64,000 nt of DNA from a virus (IMGVR_UViG_3300023179_004209:231832-295831), one strand, 5' to 3'; positions 10,042 to 48,990 are shown, numbered from the stretch's first letter. The notes: generated from the letters alone by a model not told the origin. Numbers and translations: made by a program.

Positions 10042-10064
10042 CCCCTAGGATAAAGCCATAGGGG
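10042..10064. repeat. IS end hairpin CCCCTAGG-ATAAAG-CCATAGGGG (right end, overlaps tnpB stop)
   Basis: 8-bp stem with A bulge; near-identical copy at 11323-11345. Confidence 0.6.
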
Positions 10065-11211
10065 CTTGTAATGCTGTTGCTTTCACAACAGGCTTACATA
10101 CATTTGGCTGGTTGACGACAGCCTGCCCGTAAGTCAGGTAATTAGTCTGTGATACGGGAAGTTTGGACAATTTAGCAATATTGATTGCCGCATTAATGTC
10201 CGCATCATAAATAAGTCCATTCTTAGAGTAAAATCTACAACCTCTTCTTTCTCCATCACGATTTCCAGTTACACTATCAATCTGTGATGTATAATAAGGG
10301 CGAACTAGTAGAACCAATTTACCTTGATTCTCTGCCTTATAGCTTATTACTCTACGAAGTTCAAATATTGGAACTTGTCCAATTGAACGCTTATTTTGAT
10401 ATTTATTTTTTTTCTTTTTTATACCGACAAGATTTTCAAGCACGATTGTATCTGCTTCTGTGTTTAAAACTTCATTAGCAATCAAATGTGTTTGATTTCT
10501 ATTTTTGTTAGATTCTTTATGTTTTAACTTACGAAGATGTCTTCTGGCACTTTTAGTGCTTTTGGATTTGAGACTATCTTTTAAATGTCTCAATCTACGC
10601 TTATCTCCATTAAACTTTCTATCAATAATTATTCTACCATCACTACAAGCTGCATTACGACGAATGCCGATATCTACTCCTAAAGCGAGTTTTTGTTTTA
10701 ATGGTTCTTTAGGTTTATTATCAAATGTAAATGATATAAATAATTTACCATCATTTTCATAAATTAGAGGATCTGTATATTCATATTTGTCCAATAATTC
10801 CTTTAGTTTAGGATACACTACAAATTTAAATGATTGTCTTCCAGAAGTAGTAGTTATACGGATTGAATATTTATCAGTTTTGTTTTTTGAATAAAGTCTT
10901 TTATCTAAACGCATGGAAAGGTTTTTCTTTTCAATTGATTTTTTTAATCTGTGTTTATTTGACTTTGTAGATTTATAACTTGATAAACATTCTTGTTCTG
11001 CTTTAATAATAACTTGTGATGGTATATTTGGATATTGTTTTCTAATGTTATTATAAACTTTAGAATGTAAAACTAACAAACTATTTTTTGTTTCATTGAA
11101 TTGATGTTGTGAAGCAAAATTAAATACAACTTTATGCATTTCAAGAATTGACTTTAAACTATCAAAGTCTTCTTGATTTTTCATTAAAAGTTGTGTATTA
11201 TATGATATCAC
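10045..11211 (-). CDS. tnpB: TnpB (OrfB) RuvC-like RNA-guided nuclease family protein
   Basis: RuvC-I GVDIGIRRNAA, RuvC-II IVLENLVG, RuvC-III YDADINAAINIAK; zinc-finger Cys mostly lost. Confidence 0.75.
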   Translation of the reverse strand: MISYNTQLLMKNQEDFDSLKSILEMHKVVFNFASQHQFNETKNSLLVLHSKVYNNIRKQYPNIPSQVIIKAEQECLSSYKSTKSNKHRLKKSIEKKNLSMRLDKRLYSKNKTDKYSIRITTTSGRQSFKFVVYPKLKELLDKYEYTDPLIYENDGKLFISFTFDNKPKEPLKQKLALGVDIGIRRNAACSDGRIIIDRKFNGDKRRLRHLKDSLKSKSTKSARRHLRKLKHKESNKNRNQTHLIANEVLNTEADTIVLENLVGIKKKKNKYQNKRSIGQVPIFELRRVISYKAENQGKLVLLVRPYYTSQIDSVTGNRDGERRGCRFYSKNGLIYDADINAAINIAKLSKLPVSQTNYLTYGQAVVNQPNVCKPVVKATALQAPMALS

Positions 11212-24215: not shown

Positions 24216-25991
24216 ATGGCAATCAATATTTTTACACATATACGTAGAGGTTTATATGATAATGTTTACAATTGTATAGAAAAAGAAAAGGTGGATGTCA
24301 ATCAAAGAGATGATGACACTGGCAATCCACCACTGGTTGTTGCGGTAGAAGAAAACCAAATAGAAATAGTCAGATTACTATTAAACCACGGTGCTGATGC
24401 CAATTGTAAAGATTGGACCAGTAAAAATACCGCATTGGATGTAGCTGAACAAAAAGGTTTCAAAAATATTGCAGAAGTATTACAACAAAGAGGTGCAAAA
24501 TACAGTAGTGGTAGTAGTTTCCATTTAGCTGCAAAGAATGGTGATATCGTTTCTATCGAAGAAATGTTGAATAAAGGATGTGATATCAATGAAGTTGACG
24601 CAGGTAAAGGTTGGACTGCTCTACATTACGCTGTTAATTATGGACAAAAACACTTGGTTGAATATTTGATTATAAGAGGTGCAGATGTCAACAAGAAAGA
24701 TTTCTTGGGTAAAAACAATCCTATTGATGTATTATCCAACACCAATAGAGGTGAAATTGTTAAATTATTGAATAAATACGGTGCTAAATCCGCAGGTGGT
24801 GTTAGTATTCATTTCTGCGCAGAAACTGGTGATTTTGAAGGTGTACAATCATTCTTTGATAAAGATGGTAAAGTTAATGGTAGAGATGAAAAGAATGGAT
24901 GGATGCCATTACATTATGCCGTTAACGCTAACGATGTTGATATGGTGGAGTTTTTGGTACATTTGGGAGCAAATGTTAACGGTGCAGATTTTAAAGGTGA
25001 AATTGCTCCGTTAGACATTGCATTCAAGACTGGGAATGTAGAAATGCAAACATATCTACAATCCAAAGGTGCGCAAAGAAAGAAGAAACATGATACTGGT
25101 GGTGGTGGCAAAGATGTAACCATCTATATTACAGAAGAAGTCAAGAAACAAATTGCAATGTTTATTGAAAAGCGTGAAAAAGAAGAAGCTGCAATAAAGA
25201 AACATGAAGAAGAACAAACTGCAAAAGAACCTAAAAAGAAAGATGCACCAGCTAAGAAAATTAACTGGAAAGATTTCTTGAAACTTAAAGATATTCCAGT
25301 TGTAGAAAAGAAAGAAGAAAAGAAGGTAGAAGTGGTTAAACCCGTCAAACAAATTGTCAAGAAAGTTGAACAAGTTGATATAGAAGTTAAATCCAGTAGA
25401 TTACAATTGGATGTTGAACAAGAAGGTTACATATTCTTCATGGACATTGTTGCTTATAGTAAGAAAACAACTGATGAACAAAAGAAAGCTTGTAAAGATT
25501 TGGGTGCATTGGTTAAGTCTACAATGCAATATAAAACCGCTAATGCTCTTGAAAAGTTAATTATATTACCTACTGGTGACGGTATGGTATTGGGATTCTT
25601 TACTTATTTGGAAGATGCAATGAATTGTGCTATTGCTATAGCTAAAGCAGTAAAGGATAGACCAGATTTACAAATGAGAATGGGTGTACATTGTGGATCA
25701 GTAATTCCAATGGAAGACATCAATGGTAATCTTAACATTAGTGGTGACGGTATTAATTATGCTCAAAGAGTAATGGATGCGGGTGAAAGTAATCATTTAT
25801 TGGTTAGTTCAGCAGTAATGTTAAAGTATGACCGACCACCATATGTTTTGGTAAACGATCTGGGAGATGTAGTTGTAAAACATGGTGTAGTGATGCATTT
25901 GTATAGTTTACATGGTAGTGACTTTGGCAATAAAGCATTTCCATCTAGTAGAGTGAAGAAGGCAGAACCTACTGATTCAATCAAAAAATAG
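24216..25991 (+). CDS. ankyrin-repeat protein fused to class III nucleotidyl cyclase homology domain
   Basis: about 8 ANK repeats (GADANCKD, TALHYAV, PLHYAV...). K/E-rich linker. CHD motifs FFMDIVAYS, PTGDGMV, MRMGVHCGSV, SGDGINYAQRV. Confidence 0.65.
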   Translation: MAINIFTHIRRGLYDNVYNCIEKEKVDVNQRDDDTGNPPLVVAVEENQIEIVRLLLNHGADANCKDWTSKNTALDVAEQKGFKNIAEVLQQRGAKYSSGSSFHLAAKNGDIVSIEEMLNKGCDINEVDAGKGWTALHYAVNYGQKHLVEYLIIRGADVNKKDFLGKNNPIDVLSNTNRGEIVKLLNKYGAKSAGGVSIHFCAETGDFEGVQSFFDKDGKVNGRDEKNGWMPLHYAVNANDVDMVEFLVHLGANVNGADFKGEIAPLDIAFKTGNVEMQTYLQSKGAQRKKKHDTGGGGKDVTIYITEEVKKQIAMFIEKREKEEAAIKKHEEEQTAKEPKKKDAPAKKINWKDFLKLKDIPVVEKKEEKKVEVVKPVKQIVKKVEQVDIEVKSSRLQLDVEQEGYIFFMDIVAYSKKTTDEQKKACKDLGALVKSTMQYKTANALEKLIILPTGDGMVLGFFTYLEDAMNCAIAIAKAVKDRPDLQMRMGVHCGSVIPMEDINGNLNISGDGINYAQRVMDAGESNHLLVSSAVMLKYDRPPYVLVNDLGDVVVKHGVVMHLYSLHGSDFGNKAFPSSRVKKAEPTDSIKK

Positions 25992-30717: not shown

Positions 30718-30723
30718 ACTTTA

Positions 30724-30751
30724 ACCCGCTTAATATTAAGCGGGTTTTTTA
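30724..30751 (+). terminator. Rho-independent terminator ACCCGCTTAAT..ATTAAGCGGGT + TTTTTT
   Basis: perfect 11-bp palindrome and T-run. Confidence 0.75.
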
Positions 30752-30776: not shown

Positions 30777-32114
30777 ATGGATAAGAACTTAAAGAATGTA
30801 ATTTTAAAATTGGTCGAAGAAGTAATGACTGAAGCTCCTGCACCAGTTATTGAACCACCAACCAAACCAGCAGAAAGACCACCTGCTCCATCCAAGCCAG
30901 ATAAAAGACCCAATCCATTAAAACCAACAAAACCTGGCATTGCACCAAGACCAAAGGCTTTAAGTCACGATGTACAAGCATTCTTAAATCAAAGAAAGGG
31001 TTTAACTGAAAAAATTGATACGGGTGAGGATATACCAGATTTTATTGATCCAAGCAAAAGAGCCAAAATTGAAAATGAAAAGGACTATGTAGAACAAATT
31101 CTACCAGATTTAGGTCCAGAAGCAGATAGATATTTAGAAATTATTACCAGTGAAAGTTATCAACAAAATGTAAAAAGAGTAGCTTACTATCTTGGTATTA
31201 GTGTAGGTGAAATTCAATCCAAGTTTCCAAACTATCCAACAATGGTTATGTTGGCATTTAAAACACTAAATGATATCAAAAGAGCAGAATCTAGTTTAAA
31301 GAAACAATTAGAACAAATTGCAGTAGATGTAGTATTAGATTTACCAGAAAATAAGTTTATTAAACAATTAGTAGAAGATGGTGACATTATCGTTGATGCC
31401 AAATTAGGCAATGCTGACTTAACAAAAGCAGTTACCGCAGACAAAATGGATGAAGAAATGGATAATGGTCTAACAGTTGCAGAAAATCTTAATATGCAAC
31501 TGAACACTATGTTGAGTGGTGACACTGATGGTAAATTAAGAAGAACATTGGCTAACTATATGACACAAGGTGATGCAGTAAATAAATTATTCTTATTTAA
31601 TACTGTTTCAGATAAGTTAGATACAATGAGTCCAAATCTATCAAAAAAATACGGTGTATTAGCCGCAATTACACAAATAGGATATTATTTAACGCCGGAT
31701 TTTCCAATTACAAGTGATATCGTAAATATGGCTGCTGTAGGCAGTGAACAAGTGGTTCCAACTGGTGATAAATATACAATCAAAGCCAGAGCAATGACAT
31801 TTCCTTATCTAGTACATGAATTGGTAAAAGGAATTGGTGATTATATCAGTATGGATGTTGCTTCACAAGAAGAATTGGATACTGAAACAATGGACGATGA
31901 AATCAAACAGATTATGGCAGGTCCAGCATTGGAAATGAAGTTGAGAAAGTTGATTCCAGCCGATAAAATTGAATATTTGCCTATAATCAAGAAACTATTT
32001 TATAAGTTGCCAATTGAAACCATCAAGGATATATTACTTGGAGGTATGAAAGCTCAATCTTTCATGAACGGTTTGATAAAACAAGCCGAAGAAAGCATGG
32101 AAGATGTAGATTAA
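30777..32114 (+). CDS. protein with propeptide-like N-terminus (MDKNLKNVILKLVEE) and Pro-rich linker
   Basis: ORF; PAPVIEPPTKPAERPPAPSKPDKRPNPLKPTKPGIAPRPK. Confidence 0.55.
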   Translation: MDKNLKNVILKLVEEVMTEAPAPVIEPPTKPAERPPAPSKPDKRPNPLKPTKPGIAPRPKALSHDVQAFLNQRKGLTEKIDTGEDIPDFIDPSKRAKIENEKDYVEQILPDLGPEADRYLEIITSESYQQNVKRVAYYLGISVGEIQSKFPNYPTMVMLAFKTLNDIKRAESSLKKQLEQIAVDVVLDLPENKFIKQLVEDGDIIVDAKLGNADLTKAVTADKMDEEMDNGLTVAENLNMQLNTMLSGDTDGKLRRTLANYMTQGDAVNKLFLFNTVSDKLDTMSPNLSKKYGVLAAITQIGYYLTPDFPITSDIVNMAAVGSEQVVPTGDKYTIKARAMTFPYLVHELVKGIGDYISMDVASQEELDTETMDDEIKQIMAGPALEMKLRKLIPADKIEYLPIIKKLFYKLPIETIKDILLGGMKAQSFMNGLIKQAEESMEDVD

Positions 32115-32119
32115 AATGA

Positions 32120-32419
32120 ATGAAATTCAATCATCAATATTTGGGATATGAATCAGAAGAACAAAGAGATTTATATTCTTGTAATATATTAGATGATTAT
32201 GGAGTTCATGTTGGGTTTTGTAAGTATTATAAACCGTTGTTAGAGTTTGAAACGGTTTATATTGAATTCATTAATATAACTTATGAACACCGTAGAAGAG
32301 GTCATGCAACCGCAATGGTTAAAGAACTTCAACGAATGTATTATTTGAAATGGGATGGTAGATTAAGTGTAGACGGTAGGAAGTGGTATAATTCATTGAT
32401 GGAAAGACAAATAGTATAA
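32120..32419 (+). CDS. small GNAT-like acetyltransferase (tentative)
   Basis: HRRRGHATAMVKEL resembles GNAT motif A. Confidence 0.35.
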   Translation: MKFNHQYLGYESEEQRDLYSCNILDDYGVHVGFCKYYKPLLEFETVYIEFINITYEHRRRGHATAMVKELQRMYYLKWDGRLSVDGRKWYNSLMERQIV

Positions 32420-32431
32420 TATTTATACTAC

Positions 32432-33199
32432 ATGAAAGTCATCAAAGGAGACGTAAACTTAGATTGTTTAAATTTGAGAGAAATACCGGAAATTATCAAG
32501 GATGTTTCAATTGAAGGATCATTAAGTTTATATAATAACAATTTGCGTAGTCTTAAAAATTGTCCTAAAAAAATTATACGTCATTTAAATGTGGCTAATA
32601 ATAGAAGTTTACGTTCATTGGTTGGTGGACCAGAAGAAGTAGGTGCTATTGATGTACATAATTGTAATCTAACAAGTTTAGAAGGATTTCCAAAGATAGT
32701 TAAATCTGGCAATTTTTTAGGTGGTCGTGTAGATGTTAGTGGTAACAAATTGACTTCATTGGTTGGTTTACCAGAAGAATTGTCGGAGTTAGTGATATAT
32801 AATAATCCTGGTCTTAAAACATTGCAGGGTTGTCCTAAAATTATCCGTGGTGGTTTTGAAGCATTATGGTTACCAATTACCAATATGATTGGCGGTCCAA
32901 CTGTAATATATGATGATTTGTTGTTGTATGATACAGAAATAAATTCGTTGGAAGGATTTCCAAAAAAAGTTGGTGGCAACATTTTTCTAGGCAATACACC
33001 ACTTGGTAGTATATTATTTCCTAACAGAGTAACACCAGAAACAAAGAAAAAATCTGAGGAATTAATAAATAAAATACACAGTATATGTGATATTGGAGGT
33101 GGTATATACAGAACTGCAGATGATATTGAAGAAGAAAATCCAGAAATAGAAATGGATGATTATGAACCAGATGAATATGGAGGATTTCGCAGAGTATGA
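32432..33199 (+). CDS. LRR protein paralog 1 (LPX-type 20-22-aa repeats NxLTSLxGxP)
   Basis: about 9 repeats, e.g. NNLRSLKNCPKKI, CNLTSLEGFPKIV, NKLTSLVGLPEEL. Confidence 0.6.
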   Translation: MKVIKGDVNLDCLNLREIPEIIKDVSIEGSLSLYNNNLRSLKNCPKKIIRHLNVANNRSLRSLVGGPEEVGAIDVHNCNLTSLEGFPKIVKSGNFLGGRVDVSGNKLTSLVGLPEELSELVIYNNPGLKTLQGCPKIIRGGFEALWLPITNMIGGPTVIYDDLLLYDTEINSLEGFPKKVGGNIFLGNTPLGSILFPNRVTPETKKKSEELINKIHSICDIGGGIYRTADDIEEENPEIEMDDYEPDEYGGFRRV

Positions 33200-33921
33200 A
33201 ACGCAAACATTTTTATGATAATGTAGAATTAGATCATCTATTTCTAAAAGAAATACCAGATAATATTGCAATGTATGCGTGTCATGGTTTATATGATATA
33301 TCTGATAATAAACTTACATCATTAAAAAATTGTCCGTCATTTGTAAAAGATAATTTTAATTGCAGCCTTAATAACTTAACATCATTAAGAGATGGTCCAC
33401 AAGAAGTTCAAGGAAGTTATAATTGTGCTGATAATAAAATAACATCATTGGATGGTATTGCAAAAATTATTGGAGGAGGTGTAGATGTATCATATAATCA
33501 ATTGTCATCATTACAAGGTATTCCAACACTAAAATCTAATAGATTATTAAAAGTGAGTGATAATAAAATTACAAGTTTGATTGGATATGGATTTGAGTCA
33601 ATTGAATTTAGTTCATTTGATGTAACCTCAAATAAATTAACATCATTGGCAGGTAGTCCATATAGAGTGAATGCAAATTATGAATGTGATGCTAATCCAA
33701 TTGAAAACTTTGTGGGTGGTCCTAAATTTGTTGGAAGAAATTTTTATGCAACAAGTTTACGAAGTTTAAAATCAATTGAAGGATTACCACATGTAATTGA
33801 AGGTAGATTATTTATCAGTATGATTGATATGCGTAGAATATTTCCTGGTCTTGCTGACGGAAACATAATAAAAGAAATTAGATCTATCAGCAACATTATT
33901 GGTGGTATAGCTACAATATAA
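33196..33921 (+). CDS. LRR protein paralog 2
   Basis: NKLTSLKNCPSFV, NNLTSLRDGPQEV, NKITSLDGIAKII... Confidence 0.6.
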   Translation: MKRKHFYDNVELDHLFLKEIPDNIAMYACHGLYDISDNKLTSLKNCPSFVKDNFNCSLNNLTSLRDGPQEVQGSYNCADNKITSLDGIAKIIGGGVDVSYNQLSSLQGIPTLKSNRLLKVSDNKITSLIGYGFESIEFSSFDVTSNKLTSLAGSPYRVNANYECDANPIENFVGGPKFVGRNFYATSLRSLKSIEGLPHVIEGRLFISMIDMRRIFPGLADGNIIKEIRSISNIIGGIATI

Positions 33922-33925
33922 AATT

Positions 33926-34657
33926 ATGAAAAAAATAGAAGGATATGTAGATTTAAGTGATTATGACTTCAAAGAAGTACCGTCAATATTAAATGATGTT
34001 AGTATTGAAGGTATTCTAAATATAGCTGATAATCGCATAAAAAATTTAAACAACTTTCCTTTAAATTGTGAATCTGTTTATTTGTCAGGAAATCCATTAA
34101 CTAGTTTAGTTGGTATAAAACAAAAGTATATAAGGGATTTGGAAGCAAGTAGAACAAAGATTCAAAATTTGGAAGGATGTCCTGAAATTGTATCACAACT
34201 TTTAATAAAAAACTGTGCATCATTTAATAGTTTAAAAGGAACTTTAAAAGAAATCTCAGGTCAACCCGCATATTTGACTATAAGAGGTACTTCATTACAA
34301 ACATTAGAATATTGTCCAAAAACAAATAATAATGTTAGTTTTCGTCTTGATTTTAATAAAATAACATCATTAGTTGGTCTGCCAAATAAATGTCGTGATC
34401 TACATATCAGTGATAATAACTTAACTAGTCTAGTTGGATGTCCTCAACATATCAAGGGTGATTTTTATTGTAATAATAACAATTTGAAAACATTTGACGG
34501 ATTTCCCAAAGTAGTTGAAGGTATCATATATATGACACTTTCACCTATGTATGACAATCCATTGATGATGCAATCATATTATTTTGAAAAAGAAATTAGA
34601 AAAAGATGTAAAGTTTATGGTATATCATTGACTGAACCAAAAAATGTACAAATTTAA
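33926..34657 (+). CDS. LRR protein paralog 3
   Basis: same repeat type; N-terminal DFKEVPSILNDVSIEG shared with paralogs 1 and 4. Confidence 0.6.
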   Translation: MKKIEGYVDLSDYDFKEVPSILNDVSIEGILNIADNRIKNLNNFPLNCESVYLSGNPLTSLVGIKQKYIRDLEASRTKIQNLEGCPEIVSQLLIKNCASFNSLKGTLKEISGQPAYLTIRGTSLQTLEYCPKTNNNVSFRLDFNKITSLVGLPNKCRDLHISDNNLTSLVGCPQHIKGDFYCNNNNLKTFDGFPKVVEGIIYMTLSPMYDNPLMMQSYYFEKEIRKRCKVYGISLTEPKNVQI

Positions 34658-34668
34658 TAACTGATAAT

Positions 34669-35349
34669 ATGGGAAAATATATAAAAGGAGATGTAACATT
34701 ATCTGGACTTCATTTAAAGAAGCTGCCTGAAATATTAAAGGATTTAACAATTGAAGGCAGTATATTTTTGAGTGGAAATCAGCTCACTACATTAGAAAAT
34801 TTCCCGGAACTTGTAACGGAAAATATAATGTTAGGTTCAAATCCATTGGTTAGTTTAAAAGGTATAAAACAAACCGCTGTATCAACATTATCCATAGATA
34901 ACGGTAAATTTAGTAATTTGGAAGGATGTCCATCACACATTAATAAATTAAATATAGTGGGTAATAGTAACTTAAAAAGTCTAAAGGGACTTGCACCTCA
35001 TTTAATATCTTTAAAAATTATAGGTACACCATTGCAAACAATGGAATATTGCAATCAAAATATTCACGGTACATATCATCTTGAATTTAATTTATTAAAA
35101 TCTCTGGTTGGAATGCCAAAACAATGTAGAGAACTAAAAATAGGATTCAATCAATTAGAAAATTTTATTGGTGCTCCTGAAGTTGTACTTGGAGATTTTC
35201 AATGTTATCATAATCCAATACTATCATTGGAAGGATTTCCAAAATATGCAAAAAGAGTGATTATTAATAATTTTATGAAAGACAGAGAACTTACAAGAAG
35301 AGATGTAGCAAGAGTGTGTGAAGCAGAAGAAATTGTCATTTCAGTATAA
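34669..35349 (+). CDS. LRR protein paralog 4
   Basis: LHLKKLPEILKDLTIEGS; NQLTTLENFPELV etc. Confidence 0.6.
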   Translation: MGKYIKGDVTLSGLHLKKLPEILKDLTIEGSIFLSGNQLTTLENFPELVTENIMLGSNPLVSLKGIKQTAVSTLSIDNGKFSNLEGCPSHINKLNIVGNSNLKSLKGLAPHLISLKIIGTPLQTMEYCNQNIHGTYHLEFNLLKSLVGMPKQCRELKIGFNQLENFIGAPEVVLGDFQCYHNPILSLEGFPKYAKRVIINNFMKDRELTRRDVARVCEAEEIVISV

Positions 35350-35380: not shown

Positions 35381-36334
35381 ATGAAACAACTATTGACAGA
35401 AGCCAATCTAACAAATTTTTCAGAATTACTAACTGCCATTAACAAAGTATTGGACAACAAAGACATTCCACAATTTGCTGGTAGTGAAACCAATAAAGTA
35501 AGAGATTGGTTTGTAAAACAATATGTAAAAGCAATCAAAGAAGATGAAGTTGACCTACAATCATCCATCACACCACACAAATATAGTGAAGGTGAACCAG
35601 AATGGATGAATAAATCTGACATCATGGACTTTAGTGGTGAATTACCAGAAGATGTAGTTGATGAAATTGGTCATACAGTAGACTATTTTGCTACACTTGA
35701 CGCAAATGACTTGAGAAAAATCTACAAAGAACCATATAGAGTCATCAAACAAAAGGTACAAGAATGGGACAGAGAATTGGCATCAACATCAACTGATACC
35801 AAGAAGGAAGATAATCTAAAGAAAACCTTAGTCAAGGGTACTGATTATAAGATTATCAAGGAAGTATCTGGATTAAAGTGGGTAAAACTACTTACACCAA
35901 AATCAAAAGATGTTGAAGGTGATGTAATGGGACATTGTGTAGGTGGTGAAGGTTATGAAAACAGAGACATTTATTCATTATGGGATAATAGAGATAGATC
36001 TCATGTGACTATTGAAGCTGATGATAACAGAAAGACTATTCAACAAATCAAGGGTAAACAAAATAGAGAACCAGTTGAAAAATATCAACCAGCTTGTGTT
36101 GAATTCGTGGCTAATGCAATGTTGCAAGGATACAGAGTACAAGGTGACGGTGAAAACATTGGTATGATCAAACATAACAGTGAATATCACTTTGATGAAT
36201 TAAATGTATTACCAGAAAAATTCAGAAACAAAGAAATATTTAGAACTTGGGTAGATAAAATTTTCCCAACTGAAATATTCCCTAAACAACAAAAAGCTAT
36301 TGCTGATATTGCAAAAAGAATTGTTGAAGTATAA
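35381..36334 (+). CDS. hypothetical protein (N-terminus MKQLLTE)
   Basis: start moved to ATG after TAATATTTATAAACAT. Confidence 0.5.
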   Translation: MKQLLTEANLTNFSELLTAINKVLDNKDIPQFAGSETNKVRDWFVKQYVKAIKEDEVDLQSSITPHKYSEGEPEWMNKSDIMDFSGELPEDVVDEIGHTVDYFATLDANDLRKIYKEPYRVIKQKVQEWDRELASTSTDTKKEDNLKKTLVKGTDYKIIKEVSGLKWVKLLTPKSKDVEGDVMGHCVGGEGYENRDIYSLWDNRDRSHVTIEADDNRKTIQQIKGKQNREPVEKYQPACVEFVANAMLQGYRVQGDGENIGMIKHNSEYHFDELNVLPEKFRNKEIFRTWVDKIFPTEIFPKQQKAIADIAKRIVEV

Positions 36335-40929: not shown

Positions 40930-41571
40930 ATGTTAAAATCATTATTATCACTACTATTAACTACAACAATATTTGCAGCGGAATTTGAATCGGTAAATTA
41001 TTATACAAAGAATTACCTATTTGACGCTCAAATATATTCTGTCAATACTTTCGTATCCGAAAACACACTTAGCCATCAACTAGGTGATTTTACGCCGCAT
41101 CTTGACTATGTACAATACCAAGGTTTGGATAAATATAAAGAAAGTGACTTTGGATTTGGTAGTGAATATAAACTAACAGATAAACTAAATTTGGATGTAG
41201 GTAGTTGGTATTACTATTATTACAGTGCAGGTGACCATTATTTTGAACCATACGCATCATTAACTTATGATTGGATAGTATCACCAACATTATATTTTAG
41301 TATGATAACATACAATAATACACCTAGAGCAACAATAAGCTTTGATTATAACAAAGATTTTAATGAAAAGCTGCATTTGAATGTAAGACCAGTGATTGGT
41401 ACTGCAGACTATGATGTAAGATATGGTTATTATGGTATAGTATTTGGTTTGGATTACAATGTAAATAAGAATTTTACATTGTTTACTGTTACAGAAGTTG
41501 ATAAACCTTTTAGTTCACCTGACGATAGTATCGTATACACTTATTCATTTGGAATCAAATTATCCCTATGA
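40930..41571 (+). CDS. secreted Tyr-rich beta-rich protein (possible outer-membrane protein)
   Basis: signal peptide MLKSLLSLLLTTTIFAA; alternating aromatic pattern. Confidence 0.5.
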   Translation: MLKSLLSLLLTTTIFAAEFESVNYYTKNYLFDAQIYSVNTFVSENTLSHQLGDFTPHLDYVQYQGLDKYKESDFGFGSEYKLTDKLNLDVGSWYYYYYSAGDHYFEPYASLTYDWIVSPTLYFSMITYNNTPRATISFDYNKDFNEKLHLNVRPVIGTADYDVRYGYYGIVFGLDYNVNKNFTLFTVTEVDKPFSSPDDSIVYTYSFGIKLSL

Positions 41572-43007
41572 AATTTCTTAAATTCAATTTGAGATTCGCA
41601 TTATCTACCAGCACACTATTCATTTTAGTGTTGGTAAGTATGGTATATTTCTTTTTGTTAATATTTGCAATTGAAGATATTGCAAAGAATAGTTTGAAAA
41701 GAAGTTTAAATACCTCGGTGAATATTTGTAGCAGTATTCTTGACCCAAATGAAATTGAAAAGTTAACTGAATATGAACAAGAAAAAAGCGAAGTATTTAT
41801 CAATTACAGAAAGTCTATCAAAGAAATAAAGAAAGAAGTAGAAGATATTAAATTTGTTTATATTGTAAGACAAACGGGTACAAATATCACTTATATAATA
41901 GATTGTGGTGATGATGTATCCGAACAAGCTAAATTGGGTGAAATATATGATGATGCGGGTGATGGATTGAAAGAATTATTTAACAATCCAGTTGAAGGTG
42001 TAACATTTGAGAAAGAATATTATACAGACAAGTGGGGTACATTTTTATCCGCATATAAACCAATATTTAAAAACGGTAAAATCATATATGCAGTTTGCAG
42101 TGATATCAAGTCAGTTGATGTTGAAAAGTATATATCAAATTATAAAAAGAAGTTTACTTGTGCATTTTTTACATTGTTAATTGTTATATTTCCAATCATA
42201 TGTTGGATAACAAATATGATTAGAAGACCACTTAATAAGTTAAGAGATGAAATTCTCAAGTTAAAAGATTTGGATGTAGATGAACATATTGATTTTAAGA
42301 GTAGTATCAGTGAAGTAAATGATATGATTGACGCAACTGATAAGGTAAAAACTGGTTTAAGATCATTTTCAAAGTATGTACCTGACAAGGTTGTAAAACA
42401 ATTGATAAGTCAAGGTAAGGATGCAAAAATTGGTGGGGAAAAAGAATATGTAACAATACTATTTAGTGACATTGAAGGATTTACAAGTATATCTGAAAAC
42501 AATGATACTCAAGAAGTTGTAACTGCATTAAATGAATATTTTGATATCTATGTACATTGTTTGGAAGAAAGTGGTGCAACTGTTGATAAATTCATTGGTG
42601 ACGCTGTAATGTCATTTTGGAATGCACCAAGTAAAGTTGAAAACCATGAATTTATTGCGGTCAAAACTGCAATGGAAATTGTCAAAGAAATTAATAAATT
42701 GAATCAAAAATGGAAAACTGAAGGTAAGAAATTTACATTCAAAACCAGAATAGGTATCAATTCTGGTGAAGTTATTGTCGGTAATATTGGTTCGACAAAC
42801 CGTATCAATTATACTGTTACTGGTGATCCTGTTAATTTGGCATCAAGATTAGAAGCGTCAAATAAACAATACAATACAACAATTTTAGTAAGTGAATCTG
42901 TTTATAATAAAACAAAAGAGTCAATTGATTATAATTATATTGACACAGTGAAGGTAAAAGGAAAAGAAATATATGTAAAAGTATATCAACCCGTTAAACT
43001 CAAGTAA
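41568..43007 (+). CDS. transmembrane sensor class III adenylyl/guanylyl cyclase
   Basis: TM1, about 150-aa extracytoplasmic domain, TM2, linker, then CHD. CHD motifs FSDIEGFTSISE, KFIGDAVMSFWNAP, RIGINSGEVIVGNIGS, TVTGDPVNLASRLE. Confidence 0.75.
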   Translation: MKFLKFNLRFALSTSTLFILVLVSMVYFFLLIFAIEDIAKNSLKRSLNTSVNICSSILDPNEIEKLTEYEQEKSEVFINYRKSIKEIKKEVEDIKFVYIVRQTGTNITYIIDCGDDVSEQAKLGEIYDDAGDGLKELFNNPVEGVTFEKEYYTDKWGTFLSAYKPIFKNGKIIYAVCSDIKSVDVEKYISNYKKKFTCAFFTLLIVIFPIICWITNMIRRPLNKLRDEILKLKDLDVDEHIDFKSSISEVNDMIDATDKVKTGLRSFSKYVPDKVVKQLISQGKDAKIGGEKEYVTILFSDIEGFTSISENNDTQEVVTALNEYFDIYVHCLEESGATVDKFIGDAVMSFWNAPSKVENHEFIAVKTAMEIVKEINKLNQKWKTEGKKFTFKTRIGINSGEVIVGNIGSTNRINYTVTGDPVNLASRLEASNKQYNTTILVSESVYNKTKESIDYNYIDTVKVKGKEIYVKVYQPVKLK

Positions 43008-47258: not shown

Positions 47259-47350
47259 GGCCTCAAGATGTAAGGTGCATGGGGAGACTTATAATCTCTA
47301 TAATCGCTCGATTGGCGTTCTGGGCAGTTCGATTCTGCATGAGGCTACCA
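47259..47350 (+). tRNA. type II tRNA, Leu/Tyr-like body with anticodon loop CTTATAA (apparent anticodon TAT)
   Basis: acceptor GGCCTCA/TGAGGCT; anticodon stem GGAGA/TCTCT; long variable arm; T-loop TTCGATT; A+CCA. Confidence 0.5.
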
Positions 47351-48897: not shown

Positions 48898-48990
48898 GGC
48901 TCTGTGATGTATGGTGCATGGGCAGACTTATAATCTGTATAATCCCTAGATTTGGGTGCTGATAGGGTTCAATTCCCTACGGAGCCACCA
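48898..48990 (+). tRNA. type II tRNA paralog of 47259..47350, anticodon loop CTTATAA (apparent anticodon TAT)
   Basis: acceptor GGCTCTG/CGGAGCC; anticodon stem GCAGA/TCTGT; about 24-nt variable region; T-arm TAGGG-TTCAATT-CCCTA; A+CCA. Confidence 0.5.

Follow-up and report, generated by a model that had tools for sequence, protein, structure and literature searches.

Leucine-rich repeat (LRR) proteins whose concave faces are free to evolve are a standard means of recognising changing targets, as exemplified by plant nucleotide-binding LRR receptors (NLRs), variable lymphocyte receptors (VLRs) and the IpaH/SspH effectors. Within the bacterial 'LPX' class of LRRs, the consensus is a 20- or 22-residue repeat with the double-proline motif L-P-x-L-P. 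Here we describe four consecutive LRR genes (LRR1-4), and the PcfJ-like (PF14284) gene that follows them, in a 64,000-nucleotide stretch of viral DNA (IMGVR_UViG_3300023179_004209:231832-295831, hereafter the window). The four genes encode an LRR subtype with a hypervariable binding face on a conserved scaffold, and this subtype recurs adjacent or fused to PcfJ-like domains across diverse large phages and bacterial genomes. Phage-borne LRR genes are already known from the prophage type III secretion system (T3SS) effector GogB (PMC3386239) and from an LRR protein of the APSE toxin module (PMC13137986). No description of PcfJ-linked LRR arrays or fusions was found in the literature, where the term 'PcfJ' retrieves mostly C. 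elegans pCFJ plasmids, and database members of the family are all labelled 'hypothetical protein'.

Four nine-repeat LRR proteins

The array consists of the following genes, the first of which was characterised by its open reading frame (ORF), its repeats and an AlphaFold2 model.

32432-33199, + strand: LRR1, 255 aa; start module R0 and eight LRRs of ~21 aa
33196-33921, + strand: LRR2, 241 aa; nine repeats with the most regular NxLTSL units; start module degenerate
33926-34657, + strand: LRR3, 243 aa; nine repeats; the most polymorphic of the four
34669-35349, + strand: LRR4, 226 aa; nine repeats; nearest paralog LRR3 (39% identity)

These ORFs stand exactly where a preliminary description of the window had placed four consecutive genes of 255, 241, 243 and 226 aa, and no fifth LRR gene was found within the window. 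LRR1 and LRR2 share a 4-nt ATGA overlap, with subsequent gaps of 4 and 11 nt. A self-built repeat hidden Markov model (HMM) detected seven to eight units in each protein, the best of them at an E-value of 5e-12, and manual registration gave nine repeats per protein (R0-R8), each of 19-27 residues with a mode of 21. The consensus of the 36 repeats is (I/V)1-x-G3-x-(L/V/F/Y)5-x-(L/I/V/C)7-x-x-N10-x-(L/I)12-(T/K)13-S14-L15-x-G17-x-P19-x-x, which contains the core N-x-L-T-S-L-x-G-x-P-x-x-(I/V) given in the preliminary description. Positions 5, 7, 12 and 15 are hydrophobic and position 10 is N or C in 24/36 repeats. The LRR superfamily is recognised by 20-30-residue tandem repeats that carry the segment LxxLxLxxN/CxL, and by a curved solenoid whose concave side is a parallel β-sheet. 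The N-terminal module previously noted in LRR1, LRR3 and LRR4 is real and represents the first, variant repeat (R0); LRR2 also has a degenerate copy (VELDHLFLKEIPDNIA). The start module has the pattern x-I-(K/E)-G-x-V-x-L-x-x-x-x-L-x-x-(I/L)-P-x-x-(I/L)-x-x-V-x-(I/V)-x-G and leads into V-x-G-x-F-x-(C/L)-x-x-N-x-L-T-S-L-x-G-x-P repeats. At the other end of LRR1, a helical cap (aa 202-218) is followed by a disordered acidic tail (aa 229-255; 33116-33196). A strongly acidic tail is present only in LRR1 among the four, and has the conserved ending GG(F/Y)RRV (GGFRRV in the window); its role may be that of a docking peptide or of a nucleic-acid mimic. Neither signal peptides nor transmembrane segments were predicted, and the products of the block are predicted to be soluble.

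AlphaFold2 was run on LRR1 only (39 sequences), LRR2-4 being clear paralogs with the same nine-repeat layout. The LRR1 model has high predicted accuracy (pLDDT 92; pTM 0.84), with strands approximately every 21 residues and a convex side that lacks helices, and all of its strong Foldseek matches are LRR domains. The LRR fold named in the preliminary description is therefore the one obtained by structure prediction, and each of the four proteins is a nine-repeat LRR horseshoe of the short type found in bacteria. Scores from the Pfam LRR models fall under threshold (LRR_4 15.8 and 15.1 bits against a cut-off of 27; LRR_9 15.9 bits against a cut-off of 30.5), with no Pfam LRR match for the LRR4 protein. 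These low scores are attributed to limited model sensitivity for this subtype and do not count against the fold.

The assignment of bacterial LPX repeats (SspH, IpaH, YopM, SlrP) as the nearest LRR class, which had been proposed on the basis of YopM, IpaH and SspH, is supported by three comparisons whose rankings agree. Foldseek against the PDB returned the LRR domains of SspH1, IpaH1.4, IpaH3 and IpaH9.8 as its top ten (probability 0.94-1.0; TM-score up to 0.63; ~22% identity), with other LRR classes ranking below. A family profile searched against PDB sequences, for which the E-values are inflated as is usual with repeat proteins, matched SspH2 (5.6e-14), YopM (4e-13), SspH1 (6e-13) and IpaH (4e-8 to 2e-4); its first 21 matches are all of the LPX class (6e-14 to 2e-4), and Internalin J (InlJ) and VLRs appear only afterwards. 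Lastly, the LRR regions of the NCBIfam SspH2 and SlrP models match every paralog, far below the family cut-offs.

Similarity of class does not extend to membership of the T3SS effector family. The LPxLP signature is not conserved, since position 16 (first proline) is P in 4/36 repeats and position 19 (second proline) in 24/36, while position 17 is G in 24/36. Neither Pfam nor NCBIfam detected a NEL domain, and the proteins terminate after a short helical cap. At the N-terminus there is no extension ahead of the LRR fold, and consequently no helical cap or secretion-type region: the first β-strand of the LRR1 model begins at residue 2-4 with pLDDT above 90. The lack of LPxLP, of an N-terminal cap or secretion region and of NEL together exclude the proteins from that family. 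A capsid-targeting N-terminus of the T4 internal-protein type, raised for the paralogs in the preliminary description, was likewise rejected along with a secretion N-terminus because residues 2-10 already form the first strand; a fold that starts at ~residue 4 leaves no extension able to act as either signal.

These same features bear on whether the LRR proteins are effector-like proteins aimed at a eukaryotic cell, exported or released by the bacterial host in the manner of prophage T3SS LRR effectors or symbiont-phage ankyrins. Such a role would fit with nearest solved relatives that are all T3SS effectors binding eukaryotic proteins, with the presence of an ankyrin-repeat protein elsewhere in the window, and with the abundance of PcfJ-LRR fusions in metagenome-assembled genomes (MAGs) of animal-gut Alphaproteobacteria. 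It is nevertheless very improbable given proteins that have no secretion or translocation region, no N-terminal helical cap, no NEL domain and no conserved LPxLP signature, and a roughly 200-kb lytic-type lineage known from environmental metagenomes and IMG/VR only.

A stable array with a variable binding face

The paralogs are 27-39% identical at the protein level and the longest exact DNA word they have in common is no more than 18 nt, which marks them as old paralogs rather than an assembly artefact. Assembly duplication was ruled out by this divergence, by the short shared words and by the orthologous arrays present in many contigs, and recent gene conversion among the window paralogs was rejected. 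The same four genes, with the same order and flanks, occur in at least eight independent metagenomic contigs, where LRR1 identity to the window is 95, 88, 86, 82, 76 and 53-56%. Positional orthologs are at least 54% identical compared with at most 39% for paralogs, and the four LRR genes are intact at every related locus, down to ~54% identity. The array is therefore neither a set of identical duplicates nor, with 1:1 orthologs retained to that depth, the product of a recent tandem expansion. It is old and stable in this phage clade, and copy number varies among clades (2 to 8).

Gene-wide ratios of non-synonymous to synonymous substitution (dN/dS; Nei-Gojobori) are 0.10-0.74 for the LRR genes and 0.04-0.32 for flanking genes. 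Codons were then classed by repeat position into concave strand (positions 4, 6, 8 and 9), core and other exposed; the pairwise comparisons that yield the following values are non-independent and are complicated by recombination.

Concave face: dN / gene-wide dS 0.5-1.2, with a pattern alike in all four genes
Other exposed: dN / gene-wide dS 0.1-0.5
Core: dN / gene-wide dS 0.05-0.3

With the four genes pooled and the window compared with the related phage locus L016, the proportion of non-synonymous differences (pN) is 0.233 for concave codons versus 0.100 for other exposed codons (Fisher p = 6e-9). The pooled gene-wide synonymous proportion (pS) is 0.252, from which concave pN is indistinguishable (p = 0.53). 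Concave codons evolve ~2.3x faster than other exposed codons and close to the neutral rate, with a pooled omega of ~0.9 that is not significantly greater than 1. Among 30 non-redundant LRR3 orthologs, entropy is 2.09 bits at concave positions versus 1.10 bits at other exposed positions (p = 5e-8). Analysis of dN/dS by repeat position thus recovers the diversified binding scaffold anticipated in the preliminary description insofar as the concave positions are hypervariable in all four genes. The diversifying selection that it also invoked is plausible for the concave face but is not shown by an omega of this size. In LRR1 the variation is unevenly distributed. Among 40 non-redundant orthologs R1-R4 vary while R5-R8 (aa ~117-197) are almost invariant, concave positions included, which suggests that LRR1 has a fixed surface for a partner and a variable one for a target.

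Recombination contributes to LRR variation alongside substitution. LRR3 in the window is a divergent allele (~65% identity; dS 0.65) relative to phages that have LRR2 and LRR4 at 91-98% identity, with LRR2 and LRR4 showing a dS of 0.04-0.25 against those same phages. LRR3 is also mosaic among phages (the window; L001, L007-L011, L015-L018). In L017, recombination has occurred within LRR3, the non-repeat part being identical to the L001 type and the repeat part nearer to that of the window.

Linkage of the LRR subtype to PcfJ-like proteins

The key context missing from the preliminary description is a conserved partnership with the downstream gene.

35381-36334, + strand: PcfJ-like protein (PF14284), 317 aa; Pfam 29.8 bits against a gathering cut-off of 25

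This gene begins 32 nt past LRR4, its true start being ATG 35381 and not GTG 35318. A four-paralog profile searched against 1.84 billion cluster representatives yielded 15,843 relatives at E<=1e-3 and 581 at <=1e-30, many of them 400-3300 aa long, with the wider-family consensus V-G-G-x-F-x-C-x-x-N-x-L-T-S-L-x-G-A-P-x-x. In a Pfam scan of 66 long relatives the sole recurrent extra domain was PcfJ (PF14284; 6/66). An HMM of the window PcfJ-like orthologs matches 8 of the 146 best LRR relatives (1e-14 to 9e-34). The PcfJ-like domain is N-terminal with the LRR after it in seven of these eight, and sits mid-protein directly ahead of the LRR in the eighth (P0325). The junction, '...Y-x-L-x-x-L-P-E-x-F / V-I-K-G-D-L-D-L-S-x-x-x-L-x-x-L-P-D-L-S-x-V-I-V-E-G-x-F-x-C' (the stroke marking the boundary), corresponds to the N-terminus of the window LRR proteins. 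P0325 (3311 aa) comprises a complete PcfJ-like domain including its C-terminal tail, the LRR start module, and then GNAT, ADP-ribosyltransferase and GNAT domains.

The strength of the association was assessed in an IMG/VR sample of 80 PcfJ-like loci, out of at least 401 confirmed, with an LRR counted when within 5 kb or in the same ORF. The LRR subtype is present at 11/12 full-length PcfJ-like relatives versus 2/68 others (Fisher p = 9e-11; p = 3e-9 after removal of duplicate contigs). Arrays sit either upstream or downstream of the PcfJ-like gene and differ in size (two members in L022, four in L021, five in L024, at least five in L028 and 6+2 in L023), and six loci are fused. In L022, L023, L024 and L028 all array members open with the same start module, and in the fusions this module comes after the PcfJ-like domain. 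The L024 paralogs have near-identical N-termini. A single 192.6-kb contig (IMGVR_UViG_3300027534_000002) carries two PcfJ-like loci (L025 and L030) and at least ten LRR genes, five upstream at one locus and at least five downstream at the other; their near-identical N-terminal modules indicate recent duplication or gene conversion.

In GTDB, a scan with a degenerate DNA pattern that covers two of the invariant PcfJ-like motifs gave 61 loci, all PcfJ-like by HMM and mostly from gut Alphaproteobacteria MAGs. Two fusions in such MAGs (L126, 3857-6322; L141, 3951-7250) lie amid hisS-like, prfA, aroK and mscL genes, and once beside RtcB. In the L126 protein a 21-residue repeat occurs ~23 times in nearly identical form. 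A parallel architecture is known from a survey of diversity-generating retroelements (DGRs), in which PcfJ-like domains are N-terminal to DGR-diversified regions in some targets (PMC5758913).

The PcfJ-like protein is the more conserved partner, with 73% identity in a lineage where the LRRs are at 54-56%. Its orthologs are annotated PF14284, a family named after PcfJ of pCF10 and for which no published function was found in the literature. Invariant residues are E179, M183, C186, S199, D202, H208, T210, Q222, G225, K226, P231 and Y235. No match among cultured phages was obtained when the protein was searched by tblastn. The GNAT fold has a mixed β-sheet core and a β4-(Q/R-x-x-G-x-G/A)-α3 cofactor loop. 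A GNAT-like core is predicted for the PcfJ-like protein with moderate confidence only, as sequence-level support for the assignment was not found; a profile-profile comparison between the PcfJ-like family and the neighbouring GNAT-like family likewise gave no signal (probability 0.14).

Genomic neighbourhood and phage lineage

Three features precede the array.

30723-30746, + strand: strong intrinsic-terminator-like hairpin with a 10 bp stem, 5 GC pairs and a T-run
30777-32114, + strand: 445-aa protein; opens the probable operon and is a neighbour specific to this lineage
32120-32419, + strand: 99-aa GNAT-like protein directly upstream of the array; Pfam Acetyltransf_1 1.3e-4, above cut-off

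No convincing + strand terminator was found within the block, nor any until beyond 37 kb. With a terminator ahead of the block and none inside, the gene order and signals indicate that the 445-aa gene, the GNAT-like gene, LRR1-4 and the PcfJ-like gene probably form one transcription unit. The 445-aa and GNAT-like genes were rejected as constant parts of the module, being absent beside the arrays of other clades. In the 445-aa protein, which has no recognisable domain, an N-terminal stretch (aa ~20-60, APAPVIEPPTKPAERPPAPSKPDKRPNPLKPTKPGIAPRPK) is rich in proline and of low complexity; L028 carries a weak homolog 4 kb upstream of its PcfJ-like gene. No block gene matched a PADLOC defence model, and the block does not correspond to any known defence system. 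Immediately ahead of the 445-aa/GNAT-like/LRR block, related phages carry variable cargo (L001 5254-5967, L007 208-921, L011 2144-2737, L006 2376-3779), including Gad2-like, DruA-like, carbamoyltransferase and paired 2-oxoglutarate (2OG)-Fe(II) oxygenase genes, and this region looks like an accessory or counter-defence gene hotspot.

The neighbourhood is informative as to whether the LRR proteins could be virion-associated, either as receptor-binding or adhesin tips or as fibre decorations whose paralogs widen host range. Receptor-binding proteins typically have variable binding faces and occur as several paralogs, and LRR or beta-helix domains have been predicted in the fibre-like DUF7941 proteins of phage Goslar (bioRxiv 10.64898/2026.04.21.720040). 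The genes around the array are, however, GNAT-like, PcfJ-like, RNA-ligase-type, tRNA and other accessory genes with no structural genes nearby, and PHROG matches carry no structural annotation. The proteins themselves are small, single-domain LRRs of monomer type that fold from ~residue 4 and have no attachment or oligomerisation domain. Furthermore, the fusion partner found elsewhere is enzyme-like and intracellular, with fusions in housekeeping contexts of bacterial chromosomes. A receptor-binding role, one of those suggested in the preliminary description, is on this context improbable.

The window has a G+C content of ~31% and encodes an eight-tRNA cluster at 45.5-49 kb together with an RNA ligase, a helicase, a transposase and many orphan genes. 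The LRR region has no near-identity DNA match among GenBank phages, and the phage is remote from cultured phages (helicase 25% and RNA ligase 26% identity). LRR1 has 546 homologs. All homologs of the LRR proteins come from metagenomes, on contigs of up to 196-215 kb, and several of these contigs are IMG/VR viral contigs. The source is an uncultured, lytic-type large phage lineage of roughly 200 kb. Among other genes, a 591-aa protein (24216-25991, + strand) has ankyrin repeats (Ank_2 1.7e-38) and, towards its C-terminus, a weak adenylate/guanylate-cyclase-like match, and the class III cyclase catalytic domain of a separate 479-aa protein (41568-43007, + strand) is clear (5.8e-27); ankyrin and cyclase domains are unusual for a phage in their signalling or eukaryote-like character. 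Two tRNA-Ile(tat) genes (47259-47350 and 48898-48990, + strand) are unusually long at 92-93 nt and may be intron-containing or atypical tRNAs. A 387-aa transposase-family ORF (10045-11211, - strand; phrog_506, 9e-42), on the strand opposite to nearly all other genes, is probably an insertion element within the phage genome.

A possible adaptor-plus-enzyme system

The roughly 200-kb phage lineage maintains a whole array of LRR scaffolds with evolvable faces, and adjacency and fusion tie this scaffold, across many phages and bacteria, to PF14284, a domain of unknown function. The linkage is a testable handle on PcfJ-like function and on the targets of the LRR arrays at once. From sequence and context, the interpretation that we favour, with about equal weight for and against, is that the LRR proteins are interchangeable target-recognition modules and the PcfJ-like protein is a constant, putative effector acting on host proteins. 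After infection, the LRR concave faces would bind different host proteins or variants of one, and the LRR proteins would either bring the bound proteins to the PcfJ-like protein or work jointly with it. The PcfJ-like protein may supply an acyl-transfer or similar modifying activity, as suggested by the predicted GNAT-like core and the invariant Cys, His, Asp, Glu and Q-x-x-G-K. Four paralogs would provide four specificities, to be retuned by recombination and substitution in the concave face. This would parallel IpaH/SspH in pairing a constant catalytic domain with variable LRRs, here as split genes and with another partner. More tentatively, PcfJ-like (PF14284) proteins may be unrecognised GNAT-fold protein-modifying enzymes that phages and some gut Alphaproteobacteria aim at multiple targets via interchangeable LRR adaptors. 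Adaptors split off into arrays of 2-8 or more copies, open to rapid retuning, could then represent a 'one enzyme, many adaptors' form of host manipulation that evolved independently of IpaH/SspH.

Some observations weigh against coupled recognition and modification. A concave omega of ~1 would also be given by relaxed constraint. In the GTDB scan PcfJ-LRR fusions account for 35/61 loci, a proportion that is inflated as the scan pattern was partly derived from fusion proteins. Distant, small LRR-only relatives (P0177, P0188 and bacterial P0184) have no PcfJ-like neighbour, from which it follows that the LRR can function alone. The last point in particular raises a rival explanation, in which each of the four LRR proteins would act autonomously, in the manner of the LRR-only scaffold YopM, as a stoichiometric binder or inhibitor of host proteins such as defence or housekeeping factors, and adjacency to the PcfJ-like gene would stem from gene fission ancestry or shared regulation rather than from a working complex. 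Consistent with this are the occurrence of the same LRR subtype alone in distant phage-like and bacterial contigs, the LRR-only effector YopM among the top sequence matches, the hypervariable concave faces and the counter-defence neighbourhood suggested by Gad2-like and DruA-like genes just upstream in related phages. Less easily reconciled with autonomous binding is the very strong association with full-length PcfJ-like genes (11/12 versus 2/68), which survives rearrangement to either side, into arrays of 2-8 genes and into fusions, and is hard to explain without functional coupling; the start module is also conserved as the junction to the PcfJ-like domain. We consider autonomous binding somewhat unlikely, while ranking it ahead of virion modules and these in turn ahead of eukaryote-directed effectors. 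Should the adaptor-plus-enzyme model instead be true, it would extend the host-takeover or counter-defence machinery of phages by a new class, and would provide a natural modular system for programmable target recognition.

Comparison with known systems

The closest counterparts in repeat architecture are SspH1, SspH2, IpaH and SlrP, which likewise have short 20-22-residue repeats of the form N-x-L-(T)-S-L...P and a helix-free convex side. Their concave face binds targets, and the combination of variable LRRs with a constant catalytic module follows the same logic as that proposed here. The window repeats differ in keeping only the second proline of LPxLP (L-x-G-x-P) and, at 21 residues, in having one extra residue ahead of the strand. 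The window proteins are also without the N-terminal helical cap, secretion region and NEL E3-ligase of SspH, IpaH and SlrP. Compared with SspH and IpaH, the PcfJ-like partner is a separate gene or an N-terminal fusion, which reverses the domain order, and the window genes are phage-borne in an environmental lineage with an identity of only ~22%.

YopM resembles the window proteins as a stand-alone LRR without a catalytic domain and is a top sequence match (4e-13). It acts by binding and bridging host proteins. Features of its own include 13-21 repeats with LPxLP, an N-terminal helical hairpin, a secretion signal and assembly into tetramers, and its structural similarity is lower (Foldseek rank 14; TM-score 0.31). 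Internalin J of Listeria, with its 21-residue 'cysteine-ladder' LRRs, agrees with the wider-family consensus in its period and in a conserved Cys in place of a core hydrophobic; the fusion proteins match InlJ at 6.8e-16 and LRR2 matches the NCBIfam InlJ model. The ladder Cys (position 7) is found in only 5/36 window repeats, whereas the wider family has F-x-C in nearly every repeat. Unlike the window proteins, Internalin J is secreted and cell-wall-anchored, with an internalin N-cap and Ig-like domains.

A different likeness is to the polyvalent proteins of phages and conjugative elements (Iyer et al. 2017, PMC5512222), large polypeptides that each unite several unrelated conflict-related domains, an architecture seen in the relative P0325. 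That study mentions neither LRR nor PcfJ domains (PMC5512222). In the window, by contrast, the components are separate ORFs of 99-317 aa. The occurrence of GNAT-like, four LRR and PcfJ-like genes as neighbours suggests that they are drawn from the same conflict-related toolkit that P0325 combines within a single protein.

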